A DNA stretch of 50,237 nt, filler included, from Jimgerdemannia flammicorona (taxonomy: Eukaryota), in assembly GCA_003990765.1 (NCBI GenBank). It is 2 parts of 2 records of this genome, joined end to end, with 100 filler letters (N's around TTAATTAATTAA, not from the genome) between each part and the next. Parts side by side here need not be neighbours in the genome. Positions count along the whole stretch, not along the records: positions 25,175 to 50,237 come from RBNJ01000887.1; 1 more part is not named here. One strand, given 5' to 3'. The position numbers and the translations under genes were made by a program. Positions 6,172-50,237 of this stretch are shown here, piece after piece (position 1 is the stretch's first letter; each line of letters opens with the position of its first letter). The notes beneath the pieces were generated by a model. It saw only the letters and a list, made by a program, of their open reading frames with translations, had not been told where the DNA came from and did not search any database.

Positions 6172-6425
6172 GTTCCTTAATTATACTGAATTATGCCAGC
6201 ACTCTTTTCCTGTATAACAGCTGTTCCTCCACTGGCATTCTGATGTGACTTAGAATTATTCTGGCATCATTTTCCTGTATCACCAAAATTATACCAGTAT
6301 CCTGAACCTGTGTAACCATCAGTACTGACACTGGAACTTAGCAGTTTTCCATATCCTGGTATTTTGTTTGATTATTGGAATTTATATTTAGCTTTATATC
6401 TTAGTAACCATTGAATTATATTTTG

Positions 6426-6458
6426 TATAAATATCCCTTTTATTTCCTCTGAAATAAA
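6426..6458 (+). promoter_or_regulatory. Family A LTR TATA box (TATAAA) and polyadenylation signal (AATAAA)
   Basis: TATAAAT..AATAAAG at the same position in every complete family A LTR. Confidence 0.6.
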
Positions 6459-6670
6459 GTCAATTCCTCTCAGTATAATACATACAATTTCTTACAAGCA
6501 ATTTAAAGAGATAACAAGACAGTTTAAAGATAAGAAGTTTGAGAACTATAAGACCTTGGGAAGATACTCCAATAAGAACTTGCTTATAACAAACTTGAGT
6601 TAGTCTAAGAGATATATCTTGAAGAGAATCTGACATATTCAAAGGACTCAGCAACCACTACACGACAACT

Positions 6671-6688
6671 TGGTGCCCATTGGCTGGT
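6671..6688 (+). other. Primer-binding site TGGTGCCCATTGGCTGGT (tRNA not identified)
   Basis: 3 nt after the LTR end, begins TGG; identical in element B at 38943-38960. Confidence 0.8.
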
Positions 6689-6793
6689 GATTTAAGATAA
6701 ATCTCTCACTTTTAAGCTGTAAAATGAACAACCACTACAACAACTACCCTGACTACAAGGGTCACCCCTGCAAGAATTCAAGATAAGATAGAA

Positions 6794-9700: not shown

Positions 9701-10807
9701 TTACTAAGAAGGATAGGCAGCCCTTGCCAAATATTCAAGAAATTCTTACCATCCTTGAAAGCAAAGCCAAATACTACACTACCTTGGATCTGTTCTCAGG
9801 CTTCCATCAGATTGGTCTCACTCAAGATGCCAGTGAGAAATCAGCTTTCATTCCACCTGATGCCACCTATATCTACCTGTGAATGCCATTTGGAATGTGC
9901 AATTCCCCAGTAAGTTTTCAGTGAATGATGAACAGAGTCTTCAGCAACAAGATTGAAAAATGGCTCTTTGTCTATGTTGATGATGTGATTATCTTCAGTA
10001 ATACTGTATGAGAACATATCAATCATATACAGCTATCCCTCAAGAAGCTCAAGAAGTATGGCCTCTACATCAAGCCCAAGAAATGTAAGTTTATACATAG
10101 CTCAGGAAATTGCCTACCTAGGATACCTCATTAACCAGACCAGAATCCACACAGACCCCATGAAGATCAAGGCTGTTGCAACCTACCTGAGACCCAGAAC
10201 AATCACAGAAGTCTATGCCTTCCTTGGACTGGCCTCCTACTACAGAAGATTCATCAAAGAATACTCCAACATTATAGCACCTATCTACAAGCTACTGAAG
10301 AAAGAGACCAAATTCAAATGAACCAAGGAATGCCAAGAAACCTTCAATGAACTCAAGACCAGGTAGACCCAAGCACCTATCCTCAGAAGACCAGATTGGA
10401 ATCTAGAATTAATACTGCAGACAGATGTGAGTACTATAGGACTTGGAGCAGTCCTAGCTCAGAAGAAAGATGGATATAAATATATCATCTCCTATGTAAG
10501 CTGAGGTACTCACAGAGCAGAACAGAACTATGAGTCATATAAGCTCAAATGTTTAGCAGTAGTTTGGGCAGTAGACAAGTTCCACTACTACCTAGCCAGG
10601 AAACACTTTACTATTCAAACAAACCATTCTGCTCTTGCCTGGCTGTTCCACACTCTGAACCCCAAAGAAATATATGTCAGATGGATCTATAGGCTATAAG
10701 AGTATGACTGTACTGTCAAGCACTGCTCAGGAAGAACCAATACCAATGCTGATGCACTCTCAAGGATACCCTGAAATACTCTCATCAAGACTATTCAACA
10801 TGAATAA
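6794..10807 (+). pseudogene. A1 gag-PR-dUTPase-RT-RNaseH polyprotein pseudogene
   Basis: Zn knuckle CFRCGEEGHYAKSC; protease IIDTDA (DTGA in other copies); RT SPWASPIVLV, RLCIDYRKLN, LDLFSGFHQI, YVDDVIIF; RNase H LQTD, NADALSR; ends IQHE*. Confidence 0.92.
8866..9284 (+). pseudogene. dUTPase domain between protease and RT
   Basis: All five trimeric dUTPase motifs: GIDL, TRSS, GGVIDSDYTG, RIGQM, RGEQGFGSTG. Confidence 0.92.
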
Positions 10808-12034
10808 GGAGTTATAATCAGCTACCTTGAGCAGCAGAAGATGCCCAACCACCTCAAACCCTGGACAATCACCATCATCAACTGGACTTAGAATTAGTTT
10901 GAACTAGACAACACTATACTCAGAAAAGGAGGAAAGCTAGTAATACTCAAATACAAGATGTATCAAGTAATGAAGGAAGTACATGAGCAAGGACACCTAG
11001 GAGGAATCAATACATATAACAAGGCAAAAACAACCATTTAGTGGCCCAAAATGTGAGCAGACCTGTGCCCATTTGTGAAAGGGTGTGATAAGTATCAAAA
11101 ACAGAAACAAGATCAGCAAGACCAGACACCTGGGTCATCAAAAATTAAGTCTATCCCCTTTTACCATATCACAATGGATATCATTGGGCCACTACCAGTA
11201 ACACTATCAGAAAACTGCAATATTATAGTTATTGTAGACCTCTTTACCAAATGGATAGAAGCAGGAGTATTACAAGAAGCCAATGCCCTCTCTATAGCTG
11301 ACTTCCTGCACCAAGAAAGTATCTGCTGCTACAAGATACTGAAGCAAATCACAACAGACTATGGTACAGAATTTGTCAATAGATTCTATGAGATAATGTA
11401 TCAGAAATATAAGATTTGGCACAAGACCACTGTGTACCACCTTGAAGGAAATGGACAGACAGAAAGAACCAACAAGACCCTCAAGAACATTCTGGTGAAA
11501 ATCTCAGAGACATATGAGAATTGGGATAACTACTTCCCAACTACTCTCTCTGTTCTATGAGATATATAGTCACAGAGCACACACTTTACCCCAAGAGAAC
11601 TGCTCTTCAGAGAAGAAGATTCTAATGGAACCTCAGCCACAAAACTAGACCTAACTTGGAGATAGATCAATGCAGAAATCTGGAGACAACACCAAATCAG
11701 GAAGAAGGCTGAATATTACATCATCAAGTCACAAGTGCTGATAAGAAAGAATACAGAAAAGAATCACAAGATCCTAGAACCTATCCAAATTGGAGAAAAG
11801 GTCCTATTGTATTGAAATATAGTAGAAGCCTCATGGTAATGAAAATTGGAGCCCAAATGGGAAGGACCCTTCTACATACAAGATATCAAGAGAACTACCT
11901 TCTGGCTTAGAAAAATCTCAGGGACCATACTGCCTACCATGATACATAGGAACAGACTCAAGAAGTATCATGAACCTATATAAGAGAAGCAAAACATGAT
12001 GACCACCCATGAGATTCTAGTCCACAAATCATAA
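10800..12034 (+). pseudogene. A1 integrase (HHCC-DDE-GPF), separate reading frame
   Basis: HEQGHLGG..CDK, MDIIGPLP, ITTDYGTEF, NGQTERTNKTLK, KLEPKWEGPF; no chromodomain seen. Confidence 0.9.
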
Positions 12035-12337
12035 CAGTATGTCCCATGACCAGCAGGCTATCTGTCTGGACCATTCTCTAAGAGATATGGCACTAGCAAC
12101 TACTCATCTGTGAGACTTTCAAAGCCAGAGGAGTTTGAACTGTCAACTGATTGGTCAAGATCAGAATCAGACCCTTGCTCTATATGAATGGAATGATCCT
12201 GCCAAAATATATAGGGAAGATGCCAGCCCATAAATACCAATTTTCGACTCTTTATCAGAGGTTATGAGATCAGCAAATTTTTCAGGACTGGACCAATGAA
12301 TAAGAATGCTCAAGAAGATCCTTATTCAGGTGGAAGA

Positions 12338-13906
12338 TGTAATGGTAACCTCAGAATGATGACATCAGTATAGGAGACAGCCTTTCCTTGCAAGCCACTA
12401 GATTGAAGCTCAAGAAGATCATATAGTATACAAGATGAGCAATTATGACCAACTGTGAGTCATTGTGACCACAGTACAGATATCTTGAGGAATATAAAAG
12501 AAGGATCAAGGAACCACAGTAGCAGCAACTCAACAAGACCCACCAATCCCAAAATAGCTCAAAGACTTACAATAAATGAAATGTCTGCTGCTTGCCAAAC
12601 CTCAAGGTCAAGGAACCACCAAGGTACCTCAGTCAAAGAAAAGATGTTCCAAGACATCAGAAGAGCCATGAGGACCCACAAAAGAAGGACTCCTAGTGTC
12701 AACCTGGGCACTGGTGACCCTTATCACTATATTCTCTACTGCTGTGAAATGGAAACAAGAATCACTATTACTACTGAATACCTCCAAATGTGGCAAGAGT
12801 ATAAAATAGGAAACCTCCTCTACTGGGAGTTTCCACAGGCCAGCCCTCAAGAGTTACAAGATACCACTCCCATGGATATATATGAAATAAGAACAGCTAA
12901 GAAGATCCATCAGATCTTCAGACATGCATCATAGTCAATCTCCAACTTGGAGTATGTTAGAGTCTCAGACTCTCTGTCAGCCCACCGTATCAATACACTA
13001 GAAGCCAGGGTGGCTACAGAAGCCCAGTCTACTATCACCCTCAATGGTGATGAAGTAGAAGACTTCTGGCATCCCATCCTTCAGGACAACTCAGACAAAT
13101 TCCTGCAAGAATGATCTCAGTATTCCAAGGCCCAAGCATCCAGGTTAGACCTCCCTAAGACCCCACATTTGTCTCCTATTTCATAGAAGAGAACCTCATA
13201 GACTGGAGAGCTCCAGACCTCCTTATTCCTGTCACTACCAAATATGATGACATCATTGGCAATGATGTCATCCTGCACAATATATGCAAAATGCATAACC
13301 TGCTTGATGACAATAAGATGGACAAAACATTCACAGACCTCATCTCCTTTGAAGACATCCTGATCTCTAATGAGGATGAAGCCTCTATGGTCTTGAACAT
13401 TCTGCTCTAAGTTCCTTGGTTATATTGAATTATGCCAGCACTCTCTTTCTGTATAACAGCTATTTCTCTACTGGCATTCTGATGTGACTCAGAATTATTC
13501 CAGCATCATTTTCCTATATCTCCAAAATTATACCAGTATTCTGAATCTGTGCAACCATCAGTGCCAATACTGGAACTTAGCAGTTTTCTATGTCCTGGCA
13601 TTTTGTTTGGTTATTGGAATTTATATTTAGCTTCATATCTTAGCAACCATTAAATTATATTTTATATAAATATTCCTCTTATTTTCTCTGAAATAAAGTC
13701 AGTTCTTCTCAGTGCAATACATATAATTCCTTATAAGCAATCTAAAGAGATAACAAGACAGTTTAAAGATAAGAAGTTTGAGGACTATAAGACCTTGGGA
13801 AGGTACTCCAATAAGAACTTGCTTATAACAAACTTGAGTTAGTCTAAGACATATATCTTGAAGAGAATCTAACATAATTGAAGGACTCAGCAACAACTTT
13901 GTGACA
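12338..13906 (+). repeat. A1 3' LTR (1569 bp), preceded by a PPT; carries the U3 ORF at 12581-13410
   Basis: TGTAAT...GTGACA; purine tract AGGTGGAAGA immediately upstream. Confidence 0.95.
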
Positions 13907-20961: not shown

Positions 20962-20998
20962 TGAGAGTAATGTTTAGAAGTAAGGTCTTGCTCATCCT

Positions 20999-25074: not shown

Positions 25075-25174
25075 NNNNNNNNNNNNNNNNNNNNNNNNNN
25101 NNNNNNNNNNNNNNNNNNTTAATTAATTAANNNNNNNNNNNNNNNNNNNNNNNNNNNNNNNNNNNNNNNNNNNN
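25075..25174. other. Assembly gap with artificial linker (N44-TTAATTAATTAA-N44)
   Basis: Exactly 100 bp; the 12-mer places stop codons in all six frames. Confidence 0.97.
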
Positions 25175-26970: not shown

Positions 26971-27523
26971 CAGTATGTCCTGTGACCAGTAGGCTATCTG
27001 TCTGGATCATTCTCTAAGGGATATGGTACTGGTAACTACTCATCCATGAGACTTTCAAAGTCAGAGGAGTTCAAACCACCAACTGATTGGTCAAGATCAG
27101 AATCAGGCCCTTGCTCTATATGAAGTGAGCAACCCTTCACCATCATGCCAAAATACAAAAGGAAGATGTCAGCCTATAAATACCACTTTTCGACCCCTTA
27201 CCAGAGATTATGGGATCAGCAAATTTTCAGAACTGGACTAATGAATAAGGACACTTGAGAAGATCCTTATTCAGGAGGAAGATGTAACAGTGACCCCAGA
27301 ATGATGACATCAGCACAGGAGACAGCCTTTCCTTACAAGCTACCAGATTGGAGTACAAGAAGATTATATGGCATATGAGATGAGCAATGATGACCAACTG
27401 TAAGTCATTGTGACCACAGTATAGTATCTTGAGGAATATAAAAGAAGGATCAAGGAACTGCAGTAGCAGTAACCAACAAGACCCATCAATCCCAAAATAG
27501 CCCAAAGACTTACCATAAATGAA

Positions 27524-28336
27524 ATACCTGCTGCCCACTAAACCTCAAGGTCAAGGAACCACCAAGGTACCTTGGCTGAAGAAAGGATGTTCCAAGACAT
27601 CAGAAGAGCTATAAGGACCTGCTCAAGAAGGACTCCTAGTGTCAACCTGGGTACTGGTGACCCTTATCACTATATTCTCTACTGCTATGAAATGGAAACA
27701 AGGATCACTATTGCTACCGAATACCTCTAAATATGGCAGGAATATGAAATAGGAAACCTCCTCTGCTGGGAGTTCCCACAGACCAGTACTCAAAAGCTAC
27801 AAGATGCCACTCCCATGGATATACATGAGACAAGAACAGCTAAGAAGATCCATCAGATCTTCAGATATGCACCATAGTTGATCTCTAACTTGGAGTATGT
27901 TAGAGTCTCAGATTTCAGAGACCTATCATCCTACCATATCAATGCACTAGAAGTCAGGGTGGCTACAGAAGCCTAGTCTACTATCACCCTCAATAGTGAT
28001 GAAGTAGAAGACTTCTGGCACCCCATCCTCCAAGACAACTCAGACCAATTCCTGTAAGAATTGATCTCAGTATTCCAAGGCCCAAGCATCCAGATTAGAC
28101 CTCCCCAAGACCCCACATTTGTCCCCTATTTGGTGGAAGAGAACCTTATAGACTGGAGAGCTCCAGATCTCCTTGTTCCTGCTACTGCCAAATGTGATAA
28201 TGTTATTGGAAATAACATCATCCTGTATGACCTATATAATCTTGATGAAACATTTGTGAACCTTATCTCCTTTGAAGATATCCTGACCTCTGATGACAAG
28301 GATGAAGCCCCCATGGTCTTAAACATTCTGCTCTAA
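27524..28336 (+). pseudogene. U3 accessory ORF, 271 codons start to stop (start decayed ATG>ATA)
   Basis: 813 nt; stops fall where other copies have CAA/CAG/TGG. Confidence 0.75.
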
Positions 28337-28345
28337 GTCCCCTGT

Positions 28346-28510
28346 TACACTGGATAATGCCAGCACCAGTATTCTGAGGTAACACTGGATAATACCAGTA
28401 CCAGCATTCTGAGATAACACTAGATAATACCAGTATTGGTATTCTGAGGTGATGTAAAATTGTTCCAGCACTGGCATTTTGATATAATACTGAATTATAC
28501 CAGCATCCTG
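28346..28510. repeat. 35-bp tandem repeat array in U3 (about 4.5 units)
   Basis: Unit approximately AACACTGGATAATACCAGCACCAGCATTCTGAGGT; about 2.5 units in A3 LTRs. Confidence 0.8.
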
Positions 28511-29071
28511 AACCTGTACAACCATCAGTACCGACTCTGGAACTTAGTAGTTTTAGTTATTAGAATTTATATTTAGCTTTATATCTTAGCAATCATTGAA
28601 TTATATTTTGTATAAATACCCCTCTTATTTCCTCTGAAATAAAGTCAGTCAAGTTTACTTACACACACTTTCTTGCAAGTAATCTAAGAGATAACAAGAC
28701 AGTTAAAGATAAGAAGTTTGAGGACTATAAGACCTTGAGAAGGCACTCCAATAAGAACTTGCTTATAACAAACTTGAGTTAGTCTAAGAGATACATCTTG
28801 AAAAGAATCTGGTATATTTGAAGGACTCAGCAACCACTACATGACAATATATATCTTATATAAGGTAAGGTCTTTTCTACTTAAGCTCTAGTTTTTATGA
28901 TTATGAAGCTTTTACTATATTTTAATATAGTAGGACTTTATCTCCTATCTTGATAATCTTTAAGAGCTTGTAAATTTTTTCTGCATTATTCTATTATAGA
29001 GTCTGTATCTTAGTTATATAATCCTCACTCTTCTTCCTGATTTAGTATAGTCTCTATATCTCTGTATCCAT

Positions 29072-30588
29072 TGTCATGTAGTGGTTGCTGAGTCCTTCAA
29101 ATATGCCAGATTCTCTTCAAGGTATATCTCTTAGACTAACTCAAGTTTGTTATAAGTAAGTTCTTATTGGAGTGCCTTCCCAAGGTCTTATAGTCCTCAA
29201 ACTTCTTATCTTTTAAACTGTCTTATTATCTCTTAAATTGCTCACAAGGAATTGTGTATAAGTAAACTTGACTGACTTTATTTCAAAGGAAATAAGAGAG
29301 GTATTTATACAAAATATAATTCAATGGTTGCTAAGATATAAAGCTAAATATAAATTTCAATAACTAAAATAAAATGCCAGAACAGGAAAAACTGCTAAGT
29401 TTCAGTATCAGCACTGATAGTTGTACAGGTTCAGGATGCTGGTATAATTTTGTATCACATCAGAATACTGGTACTGGTATAATTTGGTATCATATCAGAA
29501 TACTGGTGCTGGCATAATTTAGTGTAATCAAAGGACTTTAGAGCAGAATGTTCAAGACCATAGGGGCTTCAACCTCATCAGAGGTCAGGATGTCTTTGAA
29601 GGAGATAACGTCCATGAATTTGTCATCATTACATATATTACATGAGATGATATCATCACTGATGATATCATTATATTCAGCAGTAGTGGGAACAAGGAGG
29701 TCTGGGGCTGAGGTTCTCTTCCACAAAATAGGGGACAAATGTGGGGTCTTAGGGAGATCTAACCTGAATGCTTGGGCCTTGGAATACTGAGATTAATTCT
29801 TACAGGAATTGGTCTGAGTTGTCCTGGAGGATGGGATGCCAGAAGTCTTCTACTTCATCACTATTGAGGGTGATAGTGGACTGGGCTTCTGTAGCCACTC
29901 TGGCTTCTAGTGTATTGATATGGTGGGCTGACAGATCTCTGAAGTCTGAGACTCTAACATACTCTAAGTTGGAGATCAACTATAGTACATGTCTGAAGAT
30001 CTGATGGATCTTCTTAGCTATCCTTGTTTTGTGTATATCTATGAGAGTGGTATCTTGTAGTTCTTGAGTGCTTGCCTATGAGAACTCCTAGCAAAGGAGG
30101 TTTCTTATTTCATACTCCTGCCACATTTAGAGGTATTTAGTAATAATAGTGATTCTTATTTCTATTTCACAGTAGTAGAGGATATAATGATAAGGGTTAC
30201 TAGTATCTAGGTTGATACTAAGAATCCTTCTTGAGCAGGTCCTCATGACACTTCTGATGTCTTGGAATATTGTTTCTTTAACTGAGGTACCTTAGTGGTT
30301 TCTTGACCTTGAGGTTTGGTGAGCAGCAGGCATTTTGTTTGTGATAAGTCTTTGAGCTATTTTGAGATTAGTGAGTCTTGTTGGTTATTGCTACTGTGGT
30401 TCTTTGATCCTTCTTTTATATTTCTCAAGATATCCATACTGTGGTTACAATGACTCACAGTTAGTTATCATTACTTATCTTATAGTTCAGGTAGTCATGC
30501 CATATGATCTTCTTGTATTCCGATCTGGTGGCTTGTAAGGAAAGGCTGTCTCCTGTGCTGATGTCATCATTCTGGGGTCACTATTACA
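29072..30588 (-). repeat. A3 3' LTR (U3 ORF at 30333-29538)
   Basis: Reverse complement of the family A LTR; PPT at 30589-30598. Confidence 0.93.
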
Positions 30589-30901
30589 TCTTCCTTCTGA
30601 ATAAGAATCTTCTTGAGCATCCTTATTCATTGGTCTAGTCCTGAAAAATTTACTGATCCTATAACCTCTGGCAAGGGGTCAAGAAGTGGTATTTATGAGC
30701 TGACATCTTCTCTTTATATTTTGGCATGATAGTGAAGGGTCACTCCCTTCATATAGAGCAAGGGCCTGATTCTGATCTTGACCAATCAGTTGACAGTTCA
30801 AACTCCTCTGGCTTCAAAAGTCTTATGAATAAGTAGTTGCTGGTGCTGTATCCTTTAGAGAATGGTCCAGACAGATAGCCTTCTGGTTACAGGACATGCT
30901 G

Positions 30902-32146
30902 TTATAATTTACAGACTAGAACCTTATGGGTAGTCATTATATTTTGCTTCTCTTATATAGGTTCATGATACTTCTTGAGTCTGTTCCTATGTACCATGGT
31001 AGGCAGTATGGTCCCTGAGATTTTTCTAAGCTAGAAGATAGTTCTCTTGATATCTTGTATATAGAAGGGTCCTTCCTATTTGGGCTTCAGTTTTCATGAC
31101 TATGAGGCTTCTTCCATATTTCAATATAGTAAGATCTTTTCTCTGATTTGGATGGGTTCTAGGGTCTTGTGATTCTTTTCTACATTCTTTCTTATCAGTG
31201 CTTGTAACTTGATGATGTAATCTTCAGCCTTCTTCCTAATTTAGTATAGTCGCTGGATTTCTGCATTGACCTATCTTCAAGTTAGATCTAGATTTATGAC
31301 TGAGGTTCTATCAGAATATTCTTCTCTGAAGAGTAGTTCTTTTGGGATAAAGTGTGTGCTCTGTGACCATATGTCTCATAGAACAGAGAGGACAGTTGGG
31401 AGGTAGTTATCCCAATTCTTATATATCTCTGAGATCTTTGCCAGGATGTTCTTGAGGGTCTTATTAGTTCTCTCTGTCTGTCTATTTTCTTAAGAGTGGT
31501 ATATAGTAGTCTTGATGTGCTGAATCTTGTATTTCTGATACATTATTTCATAGAATCTATTGATAAATTCTGTACTATGGTCTGTTGTGATTTGCTTTGG
31601 TGTCTTATAGTAGCAGATGATTTCTTGGTATAGGAAGTCAGCTATAGAGAGGGTATTAGCTTCTTGTAATGCTCCTGCTTCTATCTATTTGATAAAGAGG
31701 TCTACAATAACTATAATATAGCAGTTTTCTGATAGTATTACTGGTAGTGACCCAATGATATCTATTATGATGTGATGGAAGGGGATAGGTGCAATTCTTG
31801 ATGACCTGAGTACTTGGTCTTGCTGATCTTATTTCTATTTTTGGCACTTGTCACATCCTTTGACAAATTGGTGCAGATCTTCTTCTATTTTGGGCCACTA
31901 TATAGTTCTTGCCTTATTATATATGTTGGTTCCTTCTAGGTATCCTTGCTTATATACTTCCTTCATTACTTGATACTTCTTATATTCAGGTATTACTAGC
32001 TTTCCTCCTTTTCTGAGTATAGTATTGTCTAGTTCAAACTGTTTCCAAGTCTGGTTAATAATAGTGATTATCTAGAGTTCAAGATAGTTGAGCATCTTCT
32101 ACTGCTTAAGATAGCTGATTAATCTATAGTATAACTTCTTATTCAT
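30902..32146 (-). pseudogene. A3 integrase, separate frame, 415 codons with stops
   Basis: Starts at CATGAATAA (minus strand); CDKCQ and KLKPK*EGPF motifs. Confidence 0.88.
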
Positions 32147-35100
32147 GTTGAATAGTCTTGATGAGAGTATTTCAGGATGTCCTTGAGAGTGCATCAGCAT
32201 TAGTGTTGGTTCTTCCTGAGTGGTGCTTGATAGTACAGTCATACTCTTACAGTCTATAGATTTATCTGGTATATATTTCTTTAGGGTTCAGAGTATAGAA
32301 TAGCCAGATAAGAGTGGAATAGTCTGTTTGAACAGTGAAGTGTTTCTCAGCTAGGTAGTAGTGGAACTTGTCTACTGCCCAAACTACTACTAAGTATTTG
32401 AGCTTACATGACTTATAGTTCTATTCTACTCCATGGGTACCTTAGCTTATATAGGAGATGATATATTCATATTCATCTTTCTTCTAAGCTAGGATGGCTC
32501 CAAGTTCTATAGTACTTGCATCTGTCTGCAAGATGAATTCTAGGTTTCAATCTGGTCTTCTGAGGATGGGTGCTTGAGTCAACCTGGTCTTGAGTTCATT
32601 GAAGGTTTCTTGGCATTCCTTGGTCCATTCAAATTTGGTTTTCTTCTTCAGTAGCTTGTAGATAAGTGCTGCAATGTTGGAGTATCCTTTGATGAATCTT
32701 CTATAATAGCTGGCCAGTCCAAGGAAGGCATGGACTTCTATGGTTATTCTGGGTCTTGGGTAGGCTGCAACAGTCTCAATCTTGGGGTCTGTATGGATTC
32801 TGGTCTGGTTGATGAAGTGTCCTAGGTAGGCAATTTCCTGAGCTATAAACTTGCATTTCTTGGGCTTGATATAGAGGCCATGCTCCTTGAGCTTCTTGAG
32901 AGCTAGCTGTATGTGGTTGACATATTCCTGTGCAGTATTGCTAAAGATGATTACATTATCAATATAGACAAAGAGTCATTTTCCAATCTCATTGCTAAAG
33001 ACTCTGTTCATCATTTGCTGAAAACTTACTGGGGCATTGCACATTCCAAATGACATTCACAGGTAGATATAAGTGGTATCAGGTATGATGAAGGCTGATT
33101 TCTCACTGATATCTTGAGTGAGACCAATCTGATGGAAGTCTGAAAAATGATCCAAGGTGGTATAGTATTTGGCTTTACTTCCAAGAGTGGTAAGGATTTT
33201 TTGAATATTTGGCAAGGACTGCCAATCCTTCTTGGTGATTGCATTGAGCTTCCTGTAGTCAATGCAAAGTCTTGGTGCAAACTCTCCAGGCTTGCTTTCT
33301 TTCTTTGAGGCAAGGACAATGGGTGAAGCCCAGAGACTAATAGCTTGCTTGATGATTCTGGCTTCTTCTATTTCCTTGAGTTCTGCTCATACCATTCTCT
33401 GTAGGCAGGTGGTATAGGTCTGGCTTTCTGGTAGATAGGCTTGATATCATCAGTATCAACTTCATGATAATACTTGAGTTCTTGATTGTGGATATCCCTG
33501 AAGTCTGTAGCAAGTACTCCTTCATTCTGATACAGGATCTTGAAAAGTTGTTCTTCCAGGGAAAAGTTTTCTCTAATGATATATGTGTGCTTGTTCTGGT
33601 CCCTGTCTTTCTTGTGCTCAAGTTTGGTAATTTTGGTAGCAGCATAGGCTCCTCTTCCAGTAGATCCAAAGCCTTGTTCTCCTCTCTTGGTCTTGATGAG
33701 TTTGATGGCTTCAGTGATCTTGGGCTTCTTGATTTTGTGGATCAGCATCTGGCCAATTCTGTCATGCTTCTTGACTTTATATGGAGTGGTGGAGTTGTAA
33801 TTTCTAACTATGAGAAAGATCTTGCCAGTGTAATCAGGGTCAATTACTCCTCCTTTAACTGAGATTTCACTTTTGGCCAGACTGCTCCTGGTCTTGATAA
33901 TTCCAGCATAGTTCTCTGGTAGCTTAACTCCAATTCCAGTACCAAGTAGGGTGGTGGTCTGTGGTTCAAGGATAGTATCTTAAATGCTGGCAAGGTCCAT
34001 TCCTATGGCTCCTTCAGTCTTATATTCTGGGATCTTGGCTTTAGGGTGAAACTTCTTGACCTTGAGGGTGATGTCTGATTCTTGTTTCTCCTCATCATCA
34101 CTGTCAGCTTGAAGCTTGGGGGACTGGTCATTTTCTTCAGCTTTTCTTTTTACTTCAGTGACTTCTTGCTTATGTTTCTATTGGTGGATTTTCCTGACTT
34201 TACTGATACAGGACCAGCAGTCATTCAGGTATTCAGAGCAGTATATTCTAGTATCATGGGGGCATCTTTTTTGAGAGACATAGCCATTAATGATCTTGTT
34301 GTACCACTGCTCATTTGTGAGCTTAGGTGTCTTGTTCTTATTCTTGTTCTTATTCACAAAGTATATGAAGACTTCTGTGTCTTCTTCATCTCCTTCCTCT
34401 ATGTCTGATAGGACATCTTTATAGATATTGATAGAGACTTATACCTTTCTTTCTCTATAGTTAATCTGTATTTTCTGGGCATTGAGATCAATGATGGCCT
34501 TGACTTTGTGAATGCCAATGAGGATGTCATAGTTGGTGGCACTTGTAACAATCACATTCACTGTGAAGGTAGCTCCTCTTATCTTGATGGAGACTTCTCA
34601 GATTTTGTCAAGGAGAGTAGCTTATATATCATCTGCTGTGACATAGACCATCTTGGTAGACTTTTTGATGTCCCAGCCTAGGTGGTCAATTATCTTCTTG
34701 CTCATGAGATATTCTCCAGCACCAGTATCAACAATGATATCAAAGATACAATCTTCAATCTGATATGGGGTATAGACTGATATCTTGCACTGGTCTTCAG
34801 ATTCTTCGCCTGAGTCTTCTGATTCTTCCTATGTATTGTGAGCTTCTACAATCTTATACTTTTGATTCTTGGCAGTAGTTGCAAGTCCTACTCTCAACTG
34901 CTATCTAAAGGCAGAGACTTTGGCTAGCTGTCCAAAAGTAGCATTGACCTTCTGTTCCTTAAGGTCCTTGTAGATATCATACTGGTGGATCTTGGTCTTG
35001 TATAGCTTCTGTTCCTTCTTGCTTTTGCTTTCTCCTAAGACTGGAGTAATGCCTTTAATGATTTGGTGAGCAGCTTTATCTAACTCTATATCTTGATCAA

Positions 35101-36151
35101 TCTCCTCAGGTTGGGTCTTACTTTGGATAGTAACAGCTGAGGTCTTCTTCAGTCTTCCAACTGACTTGCTATTACTCTTCTTGTCATAGGGCTTTGACCA
35201 GATTCTGATATCTTTAGTAGTAGGGTAGAATTTGAGCTCCTTATAGTATTCTTTATTGTTAGTGTTACCAATCTTCTTGATGACTACTGCATTGGTTTGT
35301 TCTTTGGTTCTGCTAGCATTACTTGGTTGGGCTTTGTATCTTGTTTTGGTTATGCAATTCTTTACATAGTGGCCTTCTTCTCTATATCTGAAGTATGTGA
35401 TATTGTATTCTTCTGTAGCAGCTGCAAATCTCTGCACTGGTCTCCTGTTGGCACTTCAGACTTCTCTAACAACATCACTAAGATATATAGTTATCTCAGT
35501 AAACTGCTTGGTGAGTTCCTCCACTGGGTCAGCTTTGGTTGTCTTGGGGGTAGGTGGGGTTGGTTGTCTGTTTACAATGATAGTGGGTATGATACTAGTT
35601 GGCTTTAATGGCTCCATCTTGATACCAGTTATTTTCTCCATTGAGTATTCAGCAGAGTGTCTGGCATTCCAATATCTCTGTACAAAGACCACTTTCTGAT
35701 CAAGGGTCAGTATAGCTGGAGTAAACTGGATTGCTAGGGTAATTTCAGAGTAAACTTCTTTGAGAAAGGTTGAATCTGCTATTTGTTCCTTGAGGCAGTC
35801 ATCATAGCTAGCCAAGACAATCTGATAGCAGATTCAGATATAGAATGAGTTGAGATCTTCACTAAGTCTCTGGCAGATAGTATTGAGTTGATCCTTAAGA
35901 GCTTGCTTGATCTCTTCAGTATAGTATGTTGTTCTGAGGAAGGCCTTCATGTTGGCAAGTTTGGCTGCACTATTATCAGCAATAGTAGCTACATTGAACT
36001 TGTCTCTGGCAGGTCCTCTGAGGCTAACTGATAGAAGGGCCAATTGTACATCTACACCAAGGACTTGTATGGTAGTGAATTGTTCAAAGTCTTCAATGAA
36101 GATCAGGATTGACTCTTCAGTAGTATATCTATAGAATATGTAGGGATATAT
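32139..36151 (-). pseudogene. A3 gag-PR-dUTPase-RT-RNaseH pseudogene
   Basis: SVSLRGPARDKF, IVDTGAG, GGVIDPDYTG, RGEQGFGSTG, RLCIDYRKLN, LQTDAS, NADALSR. Confidence 0.92.
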
Positions 36152-36277
36152 TTCTATCTTGTCTTAAATTCTTGTAGGGGTGACTCTTGTAGTTAGGGTA
36201 GTTATTGTGGTGGTTGTTCATTTTTCAGCTTGAAAGTGAGGGATTCATCTTGAATCACCAGCCAATGGATACCAAGT

Positions 36278-37757
36278 TATCACATAGTAGTCACTGAGTT
36301 CTTCAAATATACCAGATTTTCTTCAAGGTATATCTCTTAGACTAACTCAAGTTTGTTATAAGTAAGTTCTTATTGGAGTGTCTTTTTAAGATCTTATAGT
36401 CCTCAAACTTCTTATCTTTTAAACTGTCTTGTTATCTCTTAGATTACTTGTAAGAAATTATATATAAGTGAACTTGACTGACTTTATTTTGAAGAAAATA
36501 AGAGGGGTATTTATACAAAATATAATTCAATGATTGCTAAGATATAAAGCTAAATATAAATTCTAATAACTAAAATAAAATTCCAGGACAGGAAAAACTG
36601 CTAAGTTCTAGTGTTGGTACTGATAGTTGTACAGATTCAGGATACTGGTATAATTTTATATTACATCAGAATACTAGTGCTAGTATAATTTAATGTTACA
36701 TCAGAATGCTGGTGCTGGCATAATTCAGTGTAACCAAAGGACTTTAGAGCAGAATGTTTAAGACCAGCCTTATCAGAGGTCAGAATGTCTTCAAAGGAGA
36801 TGAGGTCTGTGAATTTGTTGTTATCATATATATTGCATGGGATGATATCATCACTGATGACATCATCATGTTCAGCAGTAGCAGGAACAAGGAGGTCTGG
36901 GGCTCTCCAGTCTATGAGGTTCTCTTCCACAAAATAGGGGACAAATGTGGGCTCTTGGGGAGATCTAACCTGGATACTTAGGTCTTGAAATACCTGAAGG
37001 ATGAGATGCCAGAAGTCTTCTACTTCATCACTGTTGAGGGTGATAGTAGACTGGGCTTCTTAGCCACTCTGGCTTCTAGTGCATTGATATGGTAGGCTGA
37101 CAGATCTCTGAAGTCTGAGACTCTAATATACTCCAAGTTGGGGATCAACCATGGTACATGCCTGAAGATCTGATAGATCTTCTTAGCTGTTCTTGTTTTG
37201 TGTATATTCATGGGAGTGGTATCTTATAGTTCTTGAGTGTTGGTCTGTGGGAACTCTCAGCAGAGGAGGTTTCCTATTTCATACTCTTGCTATATTTAGA
37301 GATATTCAGTAGCAATGGTGATCCTTGTTTCTATTTCATAGCAGTAGAGGATATAATGATAAGGGTCACCAGTACCTAGGTTGATACTAGGAGACCTTCT
37401 TGAGTGGGTCCTCATGGCTCTTCTGATGTCTTGAAACATTCTTTCTTCAACTGAGGTGCCTTGATAGTTCCTTAACCTTGAGGTTTGGTGAGCAGCAGAC
37501 ATTTTATTTGTAGTAAGTCTTTGAGCTATTTTGGGATTAGTGGGTCTTGTTGGTTGCTGCTACTGCAGTTTCTTGATCCTTCTTTTATATTCTTCAAGAT
37601 ACCAATACTGTGGTCACAATGACTCATAGTTAGTCATCATTGCTCATCTTGTAGTCCAGATAGTCATGCTATATGATCTTTTTGTATTCTGATCTGGTGG
37701 CTTGTAAGAAAAGACTATCTCCTGTACTAATATCATCATTCTAGGGTCACTATTATA
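36278..37757 (-). repeat. A3 5' LTR (U3 ORF at 37502-36744)
   Basis: Matches 29072-30588 apart from small deletions. Confidence 0.93.
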
Positions 37758-38468: not shown

Positions 38469-38939
38469 TGTGATGGCTGATCCGAATTAGTAATATGAAA
38501 CAGGGGAATTAGACATTTGATCGTGGTACCTAAATCTGATTCCCAATATAGCTTAGCCTCATAAATAGCAGCCACATTCCACAAAGTGCAGAAACTTTAA
38601 TGTTTGCAAAGATTTAGGAGATGTTAGAATCTTTGTGATCAGCGAAATCTTAGCAGATGTTAAAAGATTCAGCACTTACGAATTGAGCCATTACTTAGCT
38701 ACCTTATAGTTAGCAAAACTTGTATAAATAACCCAGTATCTTAGAGTGAATAAACCTCAGATCAAAATAGTTCAAAGCAAAGAGATAGCAAAGGAACTAG
38801 TAAGCCTGCAGGCAGATACACTTTGAACTCACCCACTCTCCCCTACAACTCAAAGGACTCTGCGAGAGTTAGAGAAGATCAAGTTTTCAAGATACAGAAA
38901 TCTGACATACTTTCAAGAGTAAGCATCCACTATGTTACA
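38469..38939 (+). repeat. B 5' LTR (471 bp)
   Basis: Same length as, and colinear with, 44731-45201; TATAAA at 38723, AATAAA at 38749. Confidence 0.96.
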
Positions 38940-39059
38940 ACTTGGTGCCCATTGGCTGGTGATTCAAGATGAATCCCTCACTTTCAAGCTAAATAACAAA
39001 CAACTATCCCTACCCAAACAACCATACAAACTGAGCCCCAATACCCAGACAAGATAGAT

Positions 39060-42000
39060 ATGAGACCACCAGTATTCCATAGATATACCTCAGATGAATC
39101 AATCATCACCTTCATTGATAATTTTGAGCAGTATGTCACTGTAAGGATCCTGACAGCAGCACAGCAAGTAGCCCTCATGCCCTTCAGCCTATGAGGTCCT
39201 GCCAGAGCAGCATTCACAGCCACAACCTATACAGGAAATGATACTGATACTATACTGACAGTACAGAAGACCTGGCTCTGAAATACATATTATACAGATG
39301 AGATCAAGCAAGCTCTGAAGGATCAGCTCAATACAACATACCAAGGAATAAGTAAGGATCCAAACACATTCTATACCAGAATTCAATATCAGATAATTCT
39401 CGTAGATTATACTGCTGCTACATATCTAAGATCAAGTAGCTGAAGCAACCTTCATGAAAGGAGTCTACCCAGAAATAGCTATGGCCATCTGCTTATCACC
39501 AGTGATTCTGGATCTGCTACAGAAGGTCACCTATGCTCAGCAATACTGGATAGCCAGACACCCACAAGACTATACAATAGAGAGAGTTACAGGAGTCAGA
39601 ATCGAAGTATCTAAGTCAACCAGTGTGATCTCCACCACAATGATCAATCGAAACACACCTCAGTCCAAAGCTATAGAGCAGCAAAAGAACAGTGACCCTT
39701 TGGAGGAACTTACCAAGAGGTTCGCAGAAATGACTGCCCACTTGGGGGATGTAGTAAAGGAGATCAGAGGAAGAGACTGCTGCTCTGTCCAGAAGTTTGC
39801 TGCCACCTCAGACAAGAAGAAAGGCACCTGCAATACTTGTGGAGAAGAAGGCCACTACTCCTATGAATGCATGAGTGAAACTAAGTGCAAGGCTCAACCA
39901 AGCAATGCTATATAAAACAAGGAGCAGGCCAATACAATTACCTTTGAGAAAATTGGAGATTCTGATGAAGAAGAATGGGAGGCCTATCCTGCTCAGACTA
40001 CTAAGAAGGATGTTCACAAGGAACCCTACAAGAGACCACCAGGAAGACTCAAGAAGAACCCAGTAGAAAAGCAGATGGAAATGGTCACCAAAAGCCAAGC
40101 TGAAGAGATGGACCAAGATATGAAGCTTGAGCAAGTAGTTCAAGATACATATTATCCAAGGAACTACCCCAGCCAGCAAAGGAGAAAAAGAAAAGAAACT
40201 TTGCAAGATCAAGACATTCAAGTATGATATCTTCAAGGATCTTAGCCAACAAAAGATCAATGCAACCTTTGGTCAGCTCGCAGAAATCCCAACATTTAGA
40301 TAATAAATGAGGTTCAGACTCGCCGAAACAACTAAGGAGTAAGGATGGAAGATAACCAAGACCAATAATATTCAAGAGGACTCAGGAGAAGAAAGTGAAG
40401 ACAATCGCAAAACCTCTGCCTATGCAATATGCCAAATCGAAGATAGAATCTTTGAAGCCATCATTGATACTGGAGCAGGAGAATGCCTTCTCAGCAAGAA
40501 GACAGCAGACTGCCTAGGTTGAAAGGTTGAAGAAGCAACCAAGTTGGTGTTTGTTACAGCAGATGGCACAAGAGCCACCCCTCTGGGAAAGATCCAAGAT
40601 GTCCCCATCAAGATTAGAGGAGCAACCATCCCAGTAGATGTAATCATAACCAATGCCACAAACTATGACATCCTTATTGGCAATCAATAGCTTCACAAAG
40701 CCAGGGCAGTAATCGACCTCAATGCTCAGAAGATGCAAATCACCTATTGGGGACAGAAGATACAAATTTCCATCAATATCAACAAAGGAGTCTTGCCTGA
40801 TATGGAGGAAGAAGAGAGCGAGCAGGAGGAAGCTTATATGGTAACCATTCCAAAGAGGAAAGTAGGATGGATGAGTGAAGAAGAATGGTGCAAGAAGATC
40901 ACAGAAGGCTATGCACCACAAGGAGTCTGTCCTCACAGGATCAAGATATACTGTATGGAGCATGTCAATGATTGCTATCAATGCACCATCAGAATCAGAA
41001 AGATTCACTAGGAAAGAAGACAGAAGGCTCTTGAAAAACAGGTTAGAGAAGAAAAGAAGGAGGAAGATGACAAACCACCAGCCCTCCTGGAGAACAGTGA
41101 TGATGAAGAAATCAATGTCAAGATTCGAAGAACCCACCCTGATGCAGTTCTGCCAGAATACAAGTTAGAAAATGCAGCTGGAATAGACATTGTTACAGTA
41201 GAAGAAGTCATACTGGAACTCCAGACAACCACCCTACTTGTAACTGGACTGGAAATGACCATTCCAAAAGACCATGTTGGGATCCTCAAGACAAGAAGCA
41301 GCCTGGCCAGAAGCAAAATTATGATTGAAGGAGGAGTCATCGATTCTGACTATACTGGAGAAATCCTGCTCATTGCTAGAAATCACAATCCTATAATCCC
41401 ATTCCCAGTCAAGAAGAAGGACTGATTGGCATAGATGCTGATCTTCCCAATCCTACAACCAAGGATTATAGAAGTCAAGAATCTGGAGGAAATGAAAAGA
41501 GGAAAGAAAGGATTTGGATCCATAGGAAGAGGAGTATTCACCAGTACCAAGATCACCAAACTGAAGCATAAGAAGGAGAAAAATACAAACAAGCACAGCT
41601 ATACCATTGGAAATGAATTCCCACTCAAGGGGGAACTCAAGAAAATACTCCATGAATTTGAGGATGTCCTTGCCACAGACTTCAAGGATATCAAAGGAAA
41701 GACTCCACACTACTATTATGAGGTAGATACCGGAGACATCAAACCAATTTACCAGAAGGCAAGACCTGTCCCACCAGCTTACCGAGAATGGCTCAGAGAA
41801 GAAATCAAGCAGATGGAAGAAGCTGGTATTATCAAAGAAGCCAGCAGTCTCTGGTCTTCACCAGTTGTACTAGCCCTGAAAAAAGGAAGCAACCCTGGAG
41901 AATTTGCCCTAAGACTCTGTGTTGACTACAGAAAGCTCAATGTAGTTATCAAGAAGGATTGCCAACCACTGCCCCTCATCAGTGACATTCTTATAACACT

Positions 42001-43048
42001 GGGAGACGAAGCACAGTACTACAGCACCTTAGACTTATACTCAGGATTCCACCAAATCGGACTCACAGAGATGGAAAGTGAAAAGTCAGCCTTCATCACT
42101 CCAGACAGAACCTACATCTACCTATAAATACCATTCAGGATGTACAATATACCAGCAAGCTTTCAGCAAATGATGAACAAAATCTTCCACTATAATATAG
42201 GAAGATGGATGATGGTCTATATTGATGATGTAATCATCTACAGCAAGATACCTGAGGAACATCTGCAGCACATATGGCAGATAATGGAGAGACTAAGACA
42301 ACATGGCCTTTACATCAAACCCAAGAAGTACAAGTTTGCAGAAATCGAGATCTCCTACCTTAGCCATATTATCAATCAAGATGAAACATACATGGACCCC
42401 CTCAAGATACAAGTAGTAGCAGCATACCCAAGGCCCACCACTGTTACAGAAGCCCAAGCCTTCATGGGACTTGCCTCCTACTATCGCAGATTTATTAGAG
42501 GATTCTCCAACATTGCAAGTCCAATCTATGAACTCAATAAGAAGGATACCAAGTTCCAGTGGACTGGCAGACAACAAAAAGTATTTGATAAACTCAAGAT
42601 CAGACTAACTCAGACACCCATCCTCAGATGACCCAATTGGACTCAAGAATTCATTCTGCAGACAGATGCAAGTGCACAGGGACTAGGAGTAGTCCTAGCT
42701 TAGAAAGAAGACAAAAAAGAGTATATCATTGCATACCTTAGCCATGGAACCTGAGGAGCTGAAAAAGAATATGAATCCTACAAGTTGGAATGCCTTGCAG
42801 TTATTTGGGCTGTAGAAAAGTTCCACTACTATCTGGCTGGAAGACACTTCACCATTCAGACAGACCACTCAGCTCTTACCTGGCTACTGACAACCAGACA
42901 ACCCAAAGGAATCTATGCTAGATGGATAATGAAGCTACAAGCCTATGATGTAACCATTGTACACTGCCCTGGAAGAACAAATTCCAATATAGATGCTCTC
43001 TCACAGATACCCCAAAACACTGTCAACCAACAAATCAATCATGAATAA
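39060..43048 (+). pseudogene. B gag-PR-dUTPase-RT-RNaseH pseudogene
   Basis: CNTCGEEGHYSYEC; IIDTGAG; AAGIDI, TRSS, GGVIDSDYTGE, RGKKGFGSIG; RLCVDYRKLN, YIDDVIIY; LQTDAS, NIDALSQ; ends INHE*. Confidence 0.93.
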
Positions 43049-44244
43049 AGAACTTTACTATGGAATTATCACATATCTGAGATAGCGAAAGATATCCCAA
43101 CATCTGGAAGAATGGATGCAAATGATTATCAATAGAACATGGAAACAATTTGAAACTGACAGATAAATACTGAAGAAAGGAAAACTACTAGTCATACTAG
43201 AACATAAGAAGGAGCAAAGCAATGAAATCAGTATATGAACTTGACCATCTAGGAGGAATGAATACATATGATAAGGCAAGAAGAACAATATGGTGGCCAG
43301 GAATGGAGGAAGATATCAGACAATTTGTCAAAACTTGTGACAAATACTAGAAACAGAAGCAAGACCAATGAAACCAAGCCCTGGGATCAGCATATATAGA
43401 ACCAGTACCATTTGCCCACATAGTAATGGATGTAATCAGCCCTCTACCCTTGACCCTGACTGGTAACTGATATATCATTGTCATCATAGACCTTTTTATG
43501 AAGTGAATAGAAGCAGGACCCCTCAAGGAAGCCAATGCACAGTAAATTGCCAATTTCTTCTACAAAGAAATCATCTGCCAGTTTAAGACCCCAATACAAG
43601 TAACTATAGATAGAGGAACAGAATTCATAAACCAGTTCTTTGAGGTTCTCTACAAGAAGTACAAGATCCAGCACATTCAGACCACAGCCTATCACCCCCA
43701 AGGAAACAGATAAGCAGAAAGGACCAATAAGACCCTCAAGAATGTTATTGCCAAGATCTGTGATAACTATGAAAACTGGGATCACTATCTGCCAATAACA
43801 TTATCTGCTCTCTGGGATATCAGATCACAAAGTACCCACTTTACTCCTTGGGAAATGCTGTTCAGAGAAGAAAGTTCTTGAGAAACCCTATCATCTAATA
43901 GAGATACTATATGGAGACATATGGATGGAGAAATACAGAGGCTACACTAAATCAGAAAGAAGGCTGAGGATTACATAATGAAAGCACAGGCACTACAACA
44001 GAAGAATGCAGAAAAAACCCACAAGCTCTTAGAGATTATCAAGATAGGAGACAAAGTCCTAGTGTATCAGAACATGGTAGAAGCCTCATGGTCATGAAAA
44101 CTAGAGCCTAAGTGGAAAGGACCTTACCTTATACAAGATATAAAAGGAACCACCTTTTGGCTATGAAAACTCTCAGGTACAATCATCCCCACTACCATCT
44201 ACCAAAACTAACTTAAGAAGTATTATGACCAGTCAACGAAGTAA
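43041..44244 (+). pseudogene. B integrase, separate frame
   Basis: MNKELYYGIITYL..HLGG..CDK..MDVISPLP..TIDRGTEF..AERTNKTLK..KLEPKWKGPY..LKKYYDQSTK*. Confidence 0.9.
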
Positions 44245-44752
44245 TACTGCTGCTCTCAGAATTACTAGTGCAGCCCAGTGAACCATCAAAAGACAGTGGT
44301 GTCCCACTGAGCCACCAACAATGGAAGAATCCTTTGATAGTATCTAGAGTATAGTGCAAACACACTTATTATGAATCTCACATTTCAAGGCCTACCAGAA
44401 CTGAACTGAGTTCCAGGAATACTTCAAGTTAGGACAGCTACTGAATTCAAGACCGAAGATGGGAAAAGAAGACTGGATCAGAGAATATCAGCTCTCCTAC
44501 ATTCAGATCACAATTGCAAAAAGAGTGCACAAGTTATTCAAAGACAATGAGTCAGCCTTAGCCCATTTCTGAGGAGTAACCACCTCAGGAGACTTTGGAT
44601 ATATCAAGAGATAATATTGGAAGGATGTAATGATACAAATTGCATAGTATAAGGAAATACAAATCATAGAAGCCTGGGAATTCGAGTGAATAGAATGCTC
44701 CCAAGATGAATCACCTATTCAGAAGGAAGATGTGATGGCTGATCCAAATTAG
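44225..44752 (+). pseudogene. Putative ORF3 (accessory gene, about 175 aa) between integrase and the 3' LTR
   Basis: One frame reads FQEYFKLGQLL..ITIAKRVHKLFKD..GVTTSGDF, resembling the family A LTR ORF; 8 internal stops; start codon uncertain. Confidence 0.6.
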
Positions 44753-45201
44753 TAATATGAAACAGGGGAATTAGACATTTGATCATGGTACCTGAATCCA
44801 ATTCCTAATATAGCTTAGTCTCATAAATAGCAGCCACATTTTGCAAAGTGTAGAAACTTTAACATTTGCAAAGATTTAGGAGATGTTAGAATCTTCGCGA
44901 TTAGCAAAATCTTAGCAGATGTTAAAAGATTCAGCACTTATGAATTGAGCCATTACTTAGCTACCTTATAGTTAGCAAAACTTATATAAATAACCCAGTA
45001 TCTTAGAGTGAATAAACCTCAGATCGAAATAGTTCAAAGTAAAGAGATAGCAAAGAAACTAGTAAGCCTGTGGGCAGATACACTTCAAACTCACCCACCC
45101 TCCCCTGCAACTCAAAGGACTCTGCAAGAGTCAGAGAAGATCAAGTTTTTAAGATACAGAAATCCGACATACTTTCAAGAGTAAGCATCCACTATGTTAC
45201 A
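44731..45201 (+). repeat. B 3' LTR (471 bp)
   Basis: Direct repeat of 38469-38939. Confidence 0.96.
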
Positions 45202-49584: not shown

Positions 49585-50237
49585 TGTAACGGTGACCCCG
49601 GAATGATGACATCAGCACAGGAGACAGCCTTTCTTTACAAGCCACCAGATCAGAGTATAAGAAGATCATACGGCATGCGAGATGAGCAATGATGACTAAC
49701 TGTGAGTCATTGTGACCACAGCACAAGCATCCTGAAGAATATAAAAGAAGGATCAAGGAACCGCAGTAGCAGCAGCCAACAAGAACCCCAATCCCAAAAT
49801 AGCTCAAAGACTTACCACAAACAAAATGCCTGCCGCCCACCAAACCTCAAGGTCAAGGAATCATCAAGGTATCTCGGTCGAGGAAAGGATGTTTCAAGAC
49901 ATCAGAAGAGCCATGAGGACCTGCTCAAGAAGGACTCCTAGCGTCAACCTGGGTACTGCAGACCCTTATCACTTTATCCTCTACTGCTGTGAAATGGAAA
50001 CAAGGATCACCATTGCCACCGAATGCCTCCAAATGTGGCAGGAATACAAAATAGGAAACCTCCTCTGCCGGGAGTTCCCACAGGCCAGCCCATAAGAGCT
50101 ACAAGATGCCACCCCCATAGACCTACGTGAGGCAAGGACAGCAAAGAAGATCCATCAGATCTTCAGGCATGCACCATGGTCGATCCCCAACTTGGAGTAT
50201 GTTAGAGTCTCAGACTTCAGAGACCTGTCATCCCACC
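49585..50237 (+). mobile_element. Family A copy A4, start of an LTR (least decayed copy), inserted into the LTR of B'; U3 ORF begins at 49826
   Basis: TGTAACGGTGACCCCGGAATGATGAC; preceded by CTAT; retains CpGs lost in other copies. Confidence 0.92.

Follow-up and report, generated by a model that had tools for sequence, protein, structure and literature searches.

Retrotransposon long terminal repeats (LTRs) are treated as non-coding. Does a 270-codon frame inside the LTR of a Ty3/Gypsy element from the fungus Jimgerdemannia flammicorona encode a protein, and what might that protein do? The frame, here called open reading frame 3 (ORF3), lies in a 50,237-nt stretch of this 231-Mb genome, hereafter the window. 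The window joins two contigs by filler N (25075–25174), and adjacency of its halves in the genome is not implied. Three class I-III chitin-synthase N-terminal domains of fungal type, encoded in long open frames, show the host to be a fungus. Searches of the same genome yielded 3,716 DNA and 6,972 protein first-look candidates, figures that are not copy numbers. The host element belongs to family A, a dUTPase-bearing Ty3/Gypsy family. ORF3 is protein-coding, was under purifying selection in replicating lineages, and is almost certainly a real protein gene. Two families, A and D, carry this conserved gene with a predicted promoter inside the LTR. Accessory ORF3s are themselves of a known kind; new are the protein family and its unusual, repeatedly reached position.

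Coding signature and decay of ORF3

The same frame had been reported from six family A LTRs in the window, and all six match the ORF profile at the places given (Table 1). The frame encodes a basic N-terminus, a helical core and an acidic tail. The focal copy has internal stops at codons 6, 69, 118, 151 and 178, and none of the six window copies was shown to be intact.

Of the shared indels within the ORF, 16 of 21 preserve the frame, vs 5 of 41 outside (p = 9e-7). Private indels do not differ clearly (26/52 within, 24/68 outside; p = 0.08). Length changes in the acidic tail preserve the frame, as initially proposed, in 22 of 24 copies chosen by DNA and in 10/10 copies of a diverged subfamily; for comparison, in-frame changes numbered 1/29, 6/30 and 10/26 in three non-coding LTR stretches. 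Core length changes are frameshifts in 7/7 DNA-chosen copies, mostly private decay.

The nonsynonymous-to-synonymous ratio (dN/dS) was calculated from transversions only, a check that had been suggested, over codons 1–215 of an alignment of 79 rows, which leaves out L001 and L069 (duplicates) and L031. Transversions in at least three copies were counted as shared. Shared transversions gave a dN/dS of 0.31 (p = 0.0016) and fell 14:4:17 by codon position; private transversions gave 0.70. The ORF3 frame was the sole one of six below p = 0.05, the other five giving p ≥ 0.07. Between subfamilies, transversions reached 0.025 at position 2 vs 0.10 at four-fold sites, which bears out the expected codon-position bias. 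The frame is also open in some copies, with 19 of 30 best protein matches stop-free in a set biased to open frames.

Database homologues are 70–78% identical to ORF3, with further ones at 47, 41 and 28%. Some members of the family carry the name 'hypothetical protein', and annotation pipelines would overlook ORF3 or give the gene this label as a host gene. A metagenome scan for relatives returned one locus (L031), and a scan of viral contigs returned no relative. The idea of a captured relic, or of a chance frame held open by rapid amplification, would suit the lack of a demonstrated intact window copy and of a known family. Frame-keeping indels, codon-position bias and homologues of 28–47% identity argue against it; these homologues come from separate families, share the start and have a TATA box at a like distance. 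This idea is very improbable and already largely refuted.

Stops occupy positions where other copies have CAA, CAG or TGG in 118 of 122 cases (38 rows picked by DNA likeness), in agreement with the initial annotation. Its description of the stops as mostly copy-specific was wrong: single-copy sites number only 7 of 25, and at one site 18 of 37 copies have a stop. The number of stops rises as CpG is lost (rho -0.82 vs CpG content, n = 73), which fits recurrent deamination after insertion. C-to-T decay affects both strands, at 39–42% for CpG, 17% for CpA, 13–16% for CpC and 7% for CpT, and CpG observed/expected is 0.03 in the focal copy vs 1.0 in a host gene stretch. This pattern is consistent with methylation-driven deamination following insertion. 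In the 5′ LTR of element 1, ORF3 is interrupted by a palindromic miniature inverted-repeat transposable element (MITE) flanked by an exact 8-bp target duplication, which we take to be hAT-like.

Because inserted copies decay, the host does not preserve ORF3 copies. This bears on a role in serving the host or acting against competing genomes, as a small helical enzyme or addiction factor riding the LTR for dispersal. Solo LTRs would spread the entire cassette, and the polar residues that are conserved (His, Glu/Asp-Tyr, His-Gln) might make up an active or metal site. Such a role is quite improbable given the dN/dS of private transversions (0.7), the accumulation of stops with CpG loss, and the lack of an enzyme family or fold match.

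Position of ORF3 in four Gypsy families

As judged from its homologues, ORF3 belongs to a gene family found in four or more Gypsy families; in two of them the gene lies outside the LTR. Family B is the sister lineage of A by reverse transcriptase (RT) and integrase, and has the same primer-binding site (PBS) and polypurine tract (PPT). Its short ORF3 relative matches the ORF3 profile in 18 of 19 orientable loci (6.4–21.5 bits), 17 of which exceed the 8.1-bit maximum of 2000 shuffles. Profile-profile comparison with ORF3 gave a probability of 85.8 and E 5e-6, and 10 database relatives were found. Kinship of the family B gene is likely, and less secure.

Distant homologues led to two further dUTPase-Gypsy families, C and D, in the same genome. 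The ORF3 stop codon of family C adjoins the PPT and the LTR is short (about 0.65–0.8 kb), which makes the gene internal and places it where env would be. A pol-less derivative of family C (L107 4985-8899; G000:C1117) keeps ORF3, both LTRs and a 5-bp target duplication. In family D, ORF3 begins about 210 bp within each of both 2350-bp LTRs. Families A and D therefore share a sag-type layout, with the ORF wholly in U3 of both LTRs. Families B and C have a conserved sense ORF before the PPT, as in the additional-ORF class aORF-3S, a layout absent from A because its ORF is in the LTR. A gene inside the LTR in two families and outside it in their sisters offers a natural series for the origin of U3 genes such as sag of mouse mammary tumour virus (MMTV).

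Core identity between A and C is 38–42%, compared with 37–46% for RT and 24–34% for integrase. The core is as conserved between families as RT, so ORF3 probably does something that the elements need.

RT and integrase group A with B and C with D, so the in-LTR (A, D) and internal (B, C) positions need at least two PPT crossings, in which ORF3 entered or left the LTR. In the RT tree the D_L114 row fell apart from D_L101 and may stem from another element. The PPT of family A and about 40 bp upstream of it are homologous to the spacer 3′ of the family B ORF3 (z 8–9). The family A gene lies downstream of this orthologous PPT and was thus translocated; the LTR border did not simply shift.

The family A LTR is a mosaic, with a C-like module of TATA box 2 and AATAAA (z 6.6–9) and a B-like U5 end (z 6.3). 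By its TATA-AATAAA module, A goes with C and B with D, contrary to the pol grouping of A with B: pieces of LTR passed between distant families. Together with the A–C core identity, the mosaic makes it plausible that family A captured ORF3 in a block from a C-like family via template switching. Contrary to capture, A falls with B (85/91) in an unrooted tree of the ORF3 core, as it does by RT and integrase, B having a very long branch (2.4). Also against it, no relic of a B-type ORF3 was found in 26 integrase–PPT intervals of family A by protein profile (best E 3.2), nor in family A by DNA profile or global alignment (z < 1). A broader view is that an env-less fungal Gypsy lineage independently reached the design of complex retroviruses, a self-contained regulator cassette of promoter, gene (of a new protein family) and poly(A) signal, through at least two PPT crossings and perhaps capture in A. 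This view is somewhat doubtful.

Predicted promoters, protein and possible function

Family A ORF3 lies wholly in U3, between TATA box 1 and the TATA/AATAAA module of the LTR. A TATAWAWR motif occurs 60–100 nt upstream of the start in 68/71 copies of family A (mode 87; 2.7% in shuffles) and in 18/20 copies of B and 15/15 of C (modes 86 and 72; 1–3% in shuffles). The motif lies within integrase codons in 22/22 copies of family B, including the window copy at 86 nt upstream, and none is found at the integrase of family A (0/35). TATA box 1 is probably the ORF3 promoter. Downstream of ORF3, a TATAAATA...AATAAA module is present in 58/63 copies and is common to the short-LTR families; it is the predicted genomic promoter and poly(A) signal. 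Sites upstream that we take to be CRE-like and TGASTCA elements occur in 59/69 and 60/69 family A LTRs, counted without a chance control.

ORF3 had been placed upstream of the LTR TATA box and so assigned to the element RNA only as the 3′ LTR copy. Each family A LTR has a predicted promoter, a gene and a predicted poly(A) signal, with the second TATA box upstream of the ORF in U3, so this restriction does not follow. Nor is a spliced subgenomic RNA required, given the upstream TATA box in A and its like distance in B and C. Dispersal of the entire gene by solo LTRs, also anticipated, was observed. The 49 complete family A LTRs comprise 24 scored as 3′, 1 more with a mutated PPT, 18 scored as 5′ and 6 solo, and 5 of these 6 have a perfect 4-bp duplication. 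Solo-LTR target sites mostly have AT at the end.

The protein was modelled with AlphaFold from 24 natural sequences (pLDDT 64.7); a first fold at pLDDT 35.5 was not used. The model has an all-helical core at about residues 22–153 (about codons 20–155 of the focal frame), with a weaker region to 190. The tail of the A, C and D proteins is acidic and rich in aromatic residues and leucine (14–29 D/E vs 2–8 K/R), and their N-terminus is basic. Short tail motifs, DLI.F and P..LN[FI], recur in A and C. The protein is not env-like, as first noted: it has no transmembrane segment, and top 19-residue hydropathy is 0.19–1.07 in six natural proteins. Pfam holds no family for the ORF3 protein (P0001) and gave three chance-level families among 24 aligned members. 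The PDB sequence search gave no match under E 0.9, and the ESM Atlas gave low recognition scores with unnamed clusters only or no match. Foldseek searches of PDB and BFVD with the pLDDT 65 model gave no match at E ≤ 0.001, which does not make the fold new, and the best Z in a VIA structure search was 4.7. HTH_Tnp_Mu_2 matches in 2/6 family B proteins (E 0.03–0.11) were under the cut-off and not accepted, and HEPN toxin rows in Foldseek (E > 1, TM < 0.2) were rejected. On these comparisons ORF3 is a new protein family without a Pfam, PDB or fold match.

Several known systems resemble ORF3 in part. The U3 of MMTV holds the sag/naf ORF and a promoter, P2 (excerpts of PMC9412291). Family A shares with the MMTV described there an ORF wholly in U3 and thus in both LTRs, a second U3 promoter (at motif level, a TATA box, in family A) and a dUTPase. 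MMTV is a betaretrovirus with env, whereas family A is an env-less fungal Gypsy family with sister families in which the gene lies outside the LTR. The ORF3 protein has no transmembrane segment, whereas Sag is a membrane protein, and Pfam searches of P0001 and 24 aligned members showed no sequence likeness to Sag.

The foamy-virus transactivator Tas has 209–308 aa, its own internal TATA promoter and an acidic activation domain (PMC3798896, in part). On that partial account ORF3 is similar in being a 3′ accessory gene for 200–300 aa, with its own TATA promoter (at motif level) and an acidic C-terminal region. In family B the TATA box falls within the coding gene that precedes ORF3, much as env contains the foamy promoter. 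Tas differs in showing no homology or fold match to ORF3 (pLDDT 65 model), and the family B protein has no acidic tail. The Tas promoter is outside the LTR, the predicted one of family A inside.

Additional ORFs of retrotransposons (plant aORF-3S/aORF-3R in Athila, Bagy2 and Grande gene 23; fungal Boty) are reviewed as internal-region genes (excerpts of PMC7264820), and bdelloid ORF3s are common to several lineages, some with a dUTPase (excerpts of PMC5408684). The likeness is an additional conserved ORF that lies 3′ of pol and is found in most copies of a family; Grande gene 23 has a promoter of its own and a nuclear product (PMC7264820, in part). The sense ORFs described in these excerpts are env-like or enzymes and usually spliced, and those of Grande and Boty are antisense. 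They are internal, not in the LTR, and the ORF3 protein matches none of those described there.

A dUTPase is known in fungal Gypsy elements (portions of PMC2864245 and PMC2774666). PosPlaTy3, Phanerochaete elements and Tuber Tmt1 carry Ty3/Gypsy pol with dUTPase ahead of RT, as in family A (PMC2864245, in part). That source surveys chromodomain-bearing elements, whereas the family A type has no chromodomain match. The available portion of PMC2864245 contains no LTR-internal gene; a figure legend names an 'add. ORF' without a known function. A literature search of partial coverage, mostly title-level and without supplements, found no report of a conserved gene within a retrotransposon LTR. A phrase match for an LTR-internal gene in PMC1560396 was unrelated in the portion available.

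ORF3 may encode a protein that acts early and in trans on the promoter of the element, as an activator or a chromatin anti-silencer. The initial annotation offered such a regulator as speculation, and it is kept here as a tentative proposal by analogy. Its basis is the separate TATA promoter, protein size, acidic tail, resemblance to Tas and host methylation pressure. ORF3 would then be a third gene, accessory and transcribed separately, in a fungal Ty3/Gypsy lineage that bears a dUTPase. TATA box 1 would drive a short unspliced mRNA ending at the LTR poly(A) signal, made alike from 5′, 3′ and solo LTRs. The soluble protein might act early and in trans: the helical core would bind element DNA or chromatin, and the acidic tail would draw in co-activators of the host. 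It might thereby raise transcription from TATA box 2 against host cytosine-methylation silencing, as Tas does in foamy viruses; the steps from the soluble protein onward are the weakest. The U3 position would double gene dose per insertion and let the gene outlive solo-LTR formation. If the lineage did reach the regulator-cassette design outlined above, any LTR, solo ones too, might supply a trans-activator or anti-silencer; past insertions could then license relatives to become active again, which would go some way to explain how repeat-laden the genome is.

Several observations weigh against an activator gene of this kind. The contrast between shared and private transversions is borderline (p = 0.052), and dN/dS over the entire ORF is 0.48. 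Deamination does not touch motifs made of A and T, so that a TATA box conserved in a single family is weak evidence on its own. Family D has no canonical TATA box (0/12), with TATTTAA instead in 7/7 scored copies. No motif common to both promoter regions of a family was clear (best p 0.02–0.045, 18 tests). The family B protein is core only, without an acidic tail or net basic N-terminus, so the tail is not essential to the function of the family. A basic cluster occurs in just 3/7 proteins, and evidence for a nuclear signal is weak. Sequence and fold searches found no known DNA-binding fold or family. A 3′ ORF of a fish (snakehead) retrovirus, proposed as a transactivator, was dispensable for transcription (PMC12193657, in part).

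The same gene and promoter could instead serve a protein that antagonises a host silencing component (RNA interference, DNA or histone methylation) by protein contact, not by LTR activation. The heavy C-to-T decay of both strands implies methylation-based silencing, and a core as conserved as RT despite unrelated LTR bodies suits a conserved host target; the tail motifs recurrent in A and C also favour this reading. The VANC protein of VANDAL transposons is a precedent for a transposon-encoded anti-silencer (PMC10398659, in part). VANC resembles ORF3 as an element-encoded accessory protein under methylation pressure, family A also having U3 tandem repeats; it differs in belonging to a plant DNA transposon and in sharing no homology with ORF3. 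The ORF3 protein has no similarity to known suppressors, and repeats that could be targets of a VANC type (TRF) are 35 bp in A only, absent in B and just 9–12 bp in C and D. Silencing antagonism is rather unlikely.

A post-transcriptional or particle helper is a further alternative, acting in RNA export (Rev/CERV-like), in translation, or in moving particles or pre-integration complexes through hyphae. A small helical protein in a 3′ accessory position would suit this, the pol-less family C derivative keeps the gene, and the core by itself suffices in family B. An LTR element of C. elegans reportedly encodes an export factor. This role is unlikely, as an arginine-rich motif is not conserved across families and a separate promoter would suit an early regulator more than a structural partner.

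Elements and other features of the window

The six family A LTRs in the window belong to two full-length elements, one 5′-truncated element, of which the focal LTR is the 3′ LTR, and one LTR cut by the window end (Table 1). The interior of element 1 encodes a gag zinc knuckle, dUTPase, RT and integrase. Pfam gives the family A domain order as gag zinc knuckle, dUTPase, RT, RNase H and integrase, with protease not told apart. TG...CA LTR ends, a PBS, a PPT and 4-bp target duplications are present, as in Ty3/Gypsy elements. Searched against solved structures, the family B RT gave Ty3-G Gag-Pol as best named match (E 1e-30), below a top row (E 2e-31) that bears only an RT/RNase H label, and the best named solved match of a family A-type integrase was Ty3-G. 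No chromodomain was found in the 462-aa frame that reaches the integrase stop of relative L031, so the family was not classed with chromoviruses.

Table 1. Positions of ORF3 copies, elements and LTR features in the window (TSD, target-site duplication).
Feature	Position	Strand	Remarks
ORF3, focal copy	27524..28336 (profile match 27527-28333)	+	ATA start, five stops, no frameshift
ORF3, element 1 5′ LTR	4895..6171 (profile 4895-5392 plus 5818-6165)	+	split by MITE
ORF3, element 1 3′ LTR	12581..13410 (profile to 13407)	+	frameshifted
ORF3, element 3 3′ LTR	29538..30333 (profile 30333-29541)	-	frameshifted
ORF3, element 3 5′ LTR	36744..37502 (profile 37502-36766)	-	frameshifted
ORF3, copy 6	49826 to window end (profile 49826-50233)	+	one stop, cut
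Family B short ORF3 relative	44225..44689	+	about 153 codons, limited to the core, in the integrase–PPT interval
PPT before focal LTR	27272..27282	+	
Focal family A LTR	27283..28846	+	1564 bp, TGTAA...TGACA
TATA box 1 (predicted ORF3 promoter)	27437..27444	+	87 nt upstream of start codon
Three 35-bp tandem repeats	28347..28450	+	U3, between ORF3 and TATA box 2
TATA box 2 (predicted genomic promoter) and AATAAA	28611..28643	+	AATAAA at 28638
Family A element 1, full-length	4652..13906	+	TSD CTAA
Element 1 5′ LTR	4652-6667	+	PBS about 6668-6687
Palindromic MITE	5391..5822	.	432 bp, AT-rich, short terminal inverted repeats, within ORF3 of 5′ LTR
Element 1 3′ LTR	12338-13906	+	
Family A element 3, full-length	29072..37757	-	TSD ATGG
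Element 3 LTRs	5′, 37757-36278; 3′, 30588-29072	-	
Family A LTR cut by window end	49585..50237	+	ORF3 from 49826
Family B element	38469..45201	+	472-bp LTRs without ORF, TSD ATAG

Target duplications are 4 bp in family A, B and D insertions and 5 bp in one family C copy. LTR pairs diverge 7–11% by transitions and mostly <1% by transversions (element 1, 1–2%), so ordinary LTR dating would give too high an age. Extra partial family A LTRs adjoin the full one at three loci (L008, L027 and L018), and in L008 the ORF-bearing 5′ part of the LTR is partially duplicated in tandem. Families A and B have an identical primer site (window 6668-6687 and 38941-38960), presumably His-like; one pattern search for the matching tRNA gave no match, and the window contains no tRNA or Rfam match. 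The family D primer site presumably resembles a tRNA-Pro primer.

Pieces of an older family B-related element lie on the minus strand at 28850-29075, 37758-38463 and 45203-49582. This element is apparently interrupted by family A elements and the younger B element, forming a nested cluster. A CpG-rich LTR-like stretch at about 14810-15990 gave no ORF3 match. It contains TATA boxes at about 14915 and about 15054, tandem repeats of 9/27 bp (15522-15597), a TATA-AATAAA module of the D/B type and a primer site like that of family D. Two decayed elements on the minus strand at 1-3947 and 18737-22685 are 67% alike, have a strong C skew and a weak RT match (E 0.003), and are probably LINE-like (LINE, long interspersed nuclear element).
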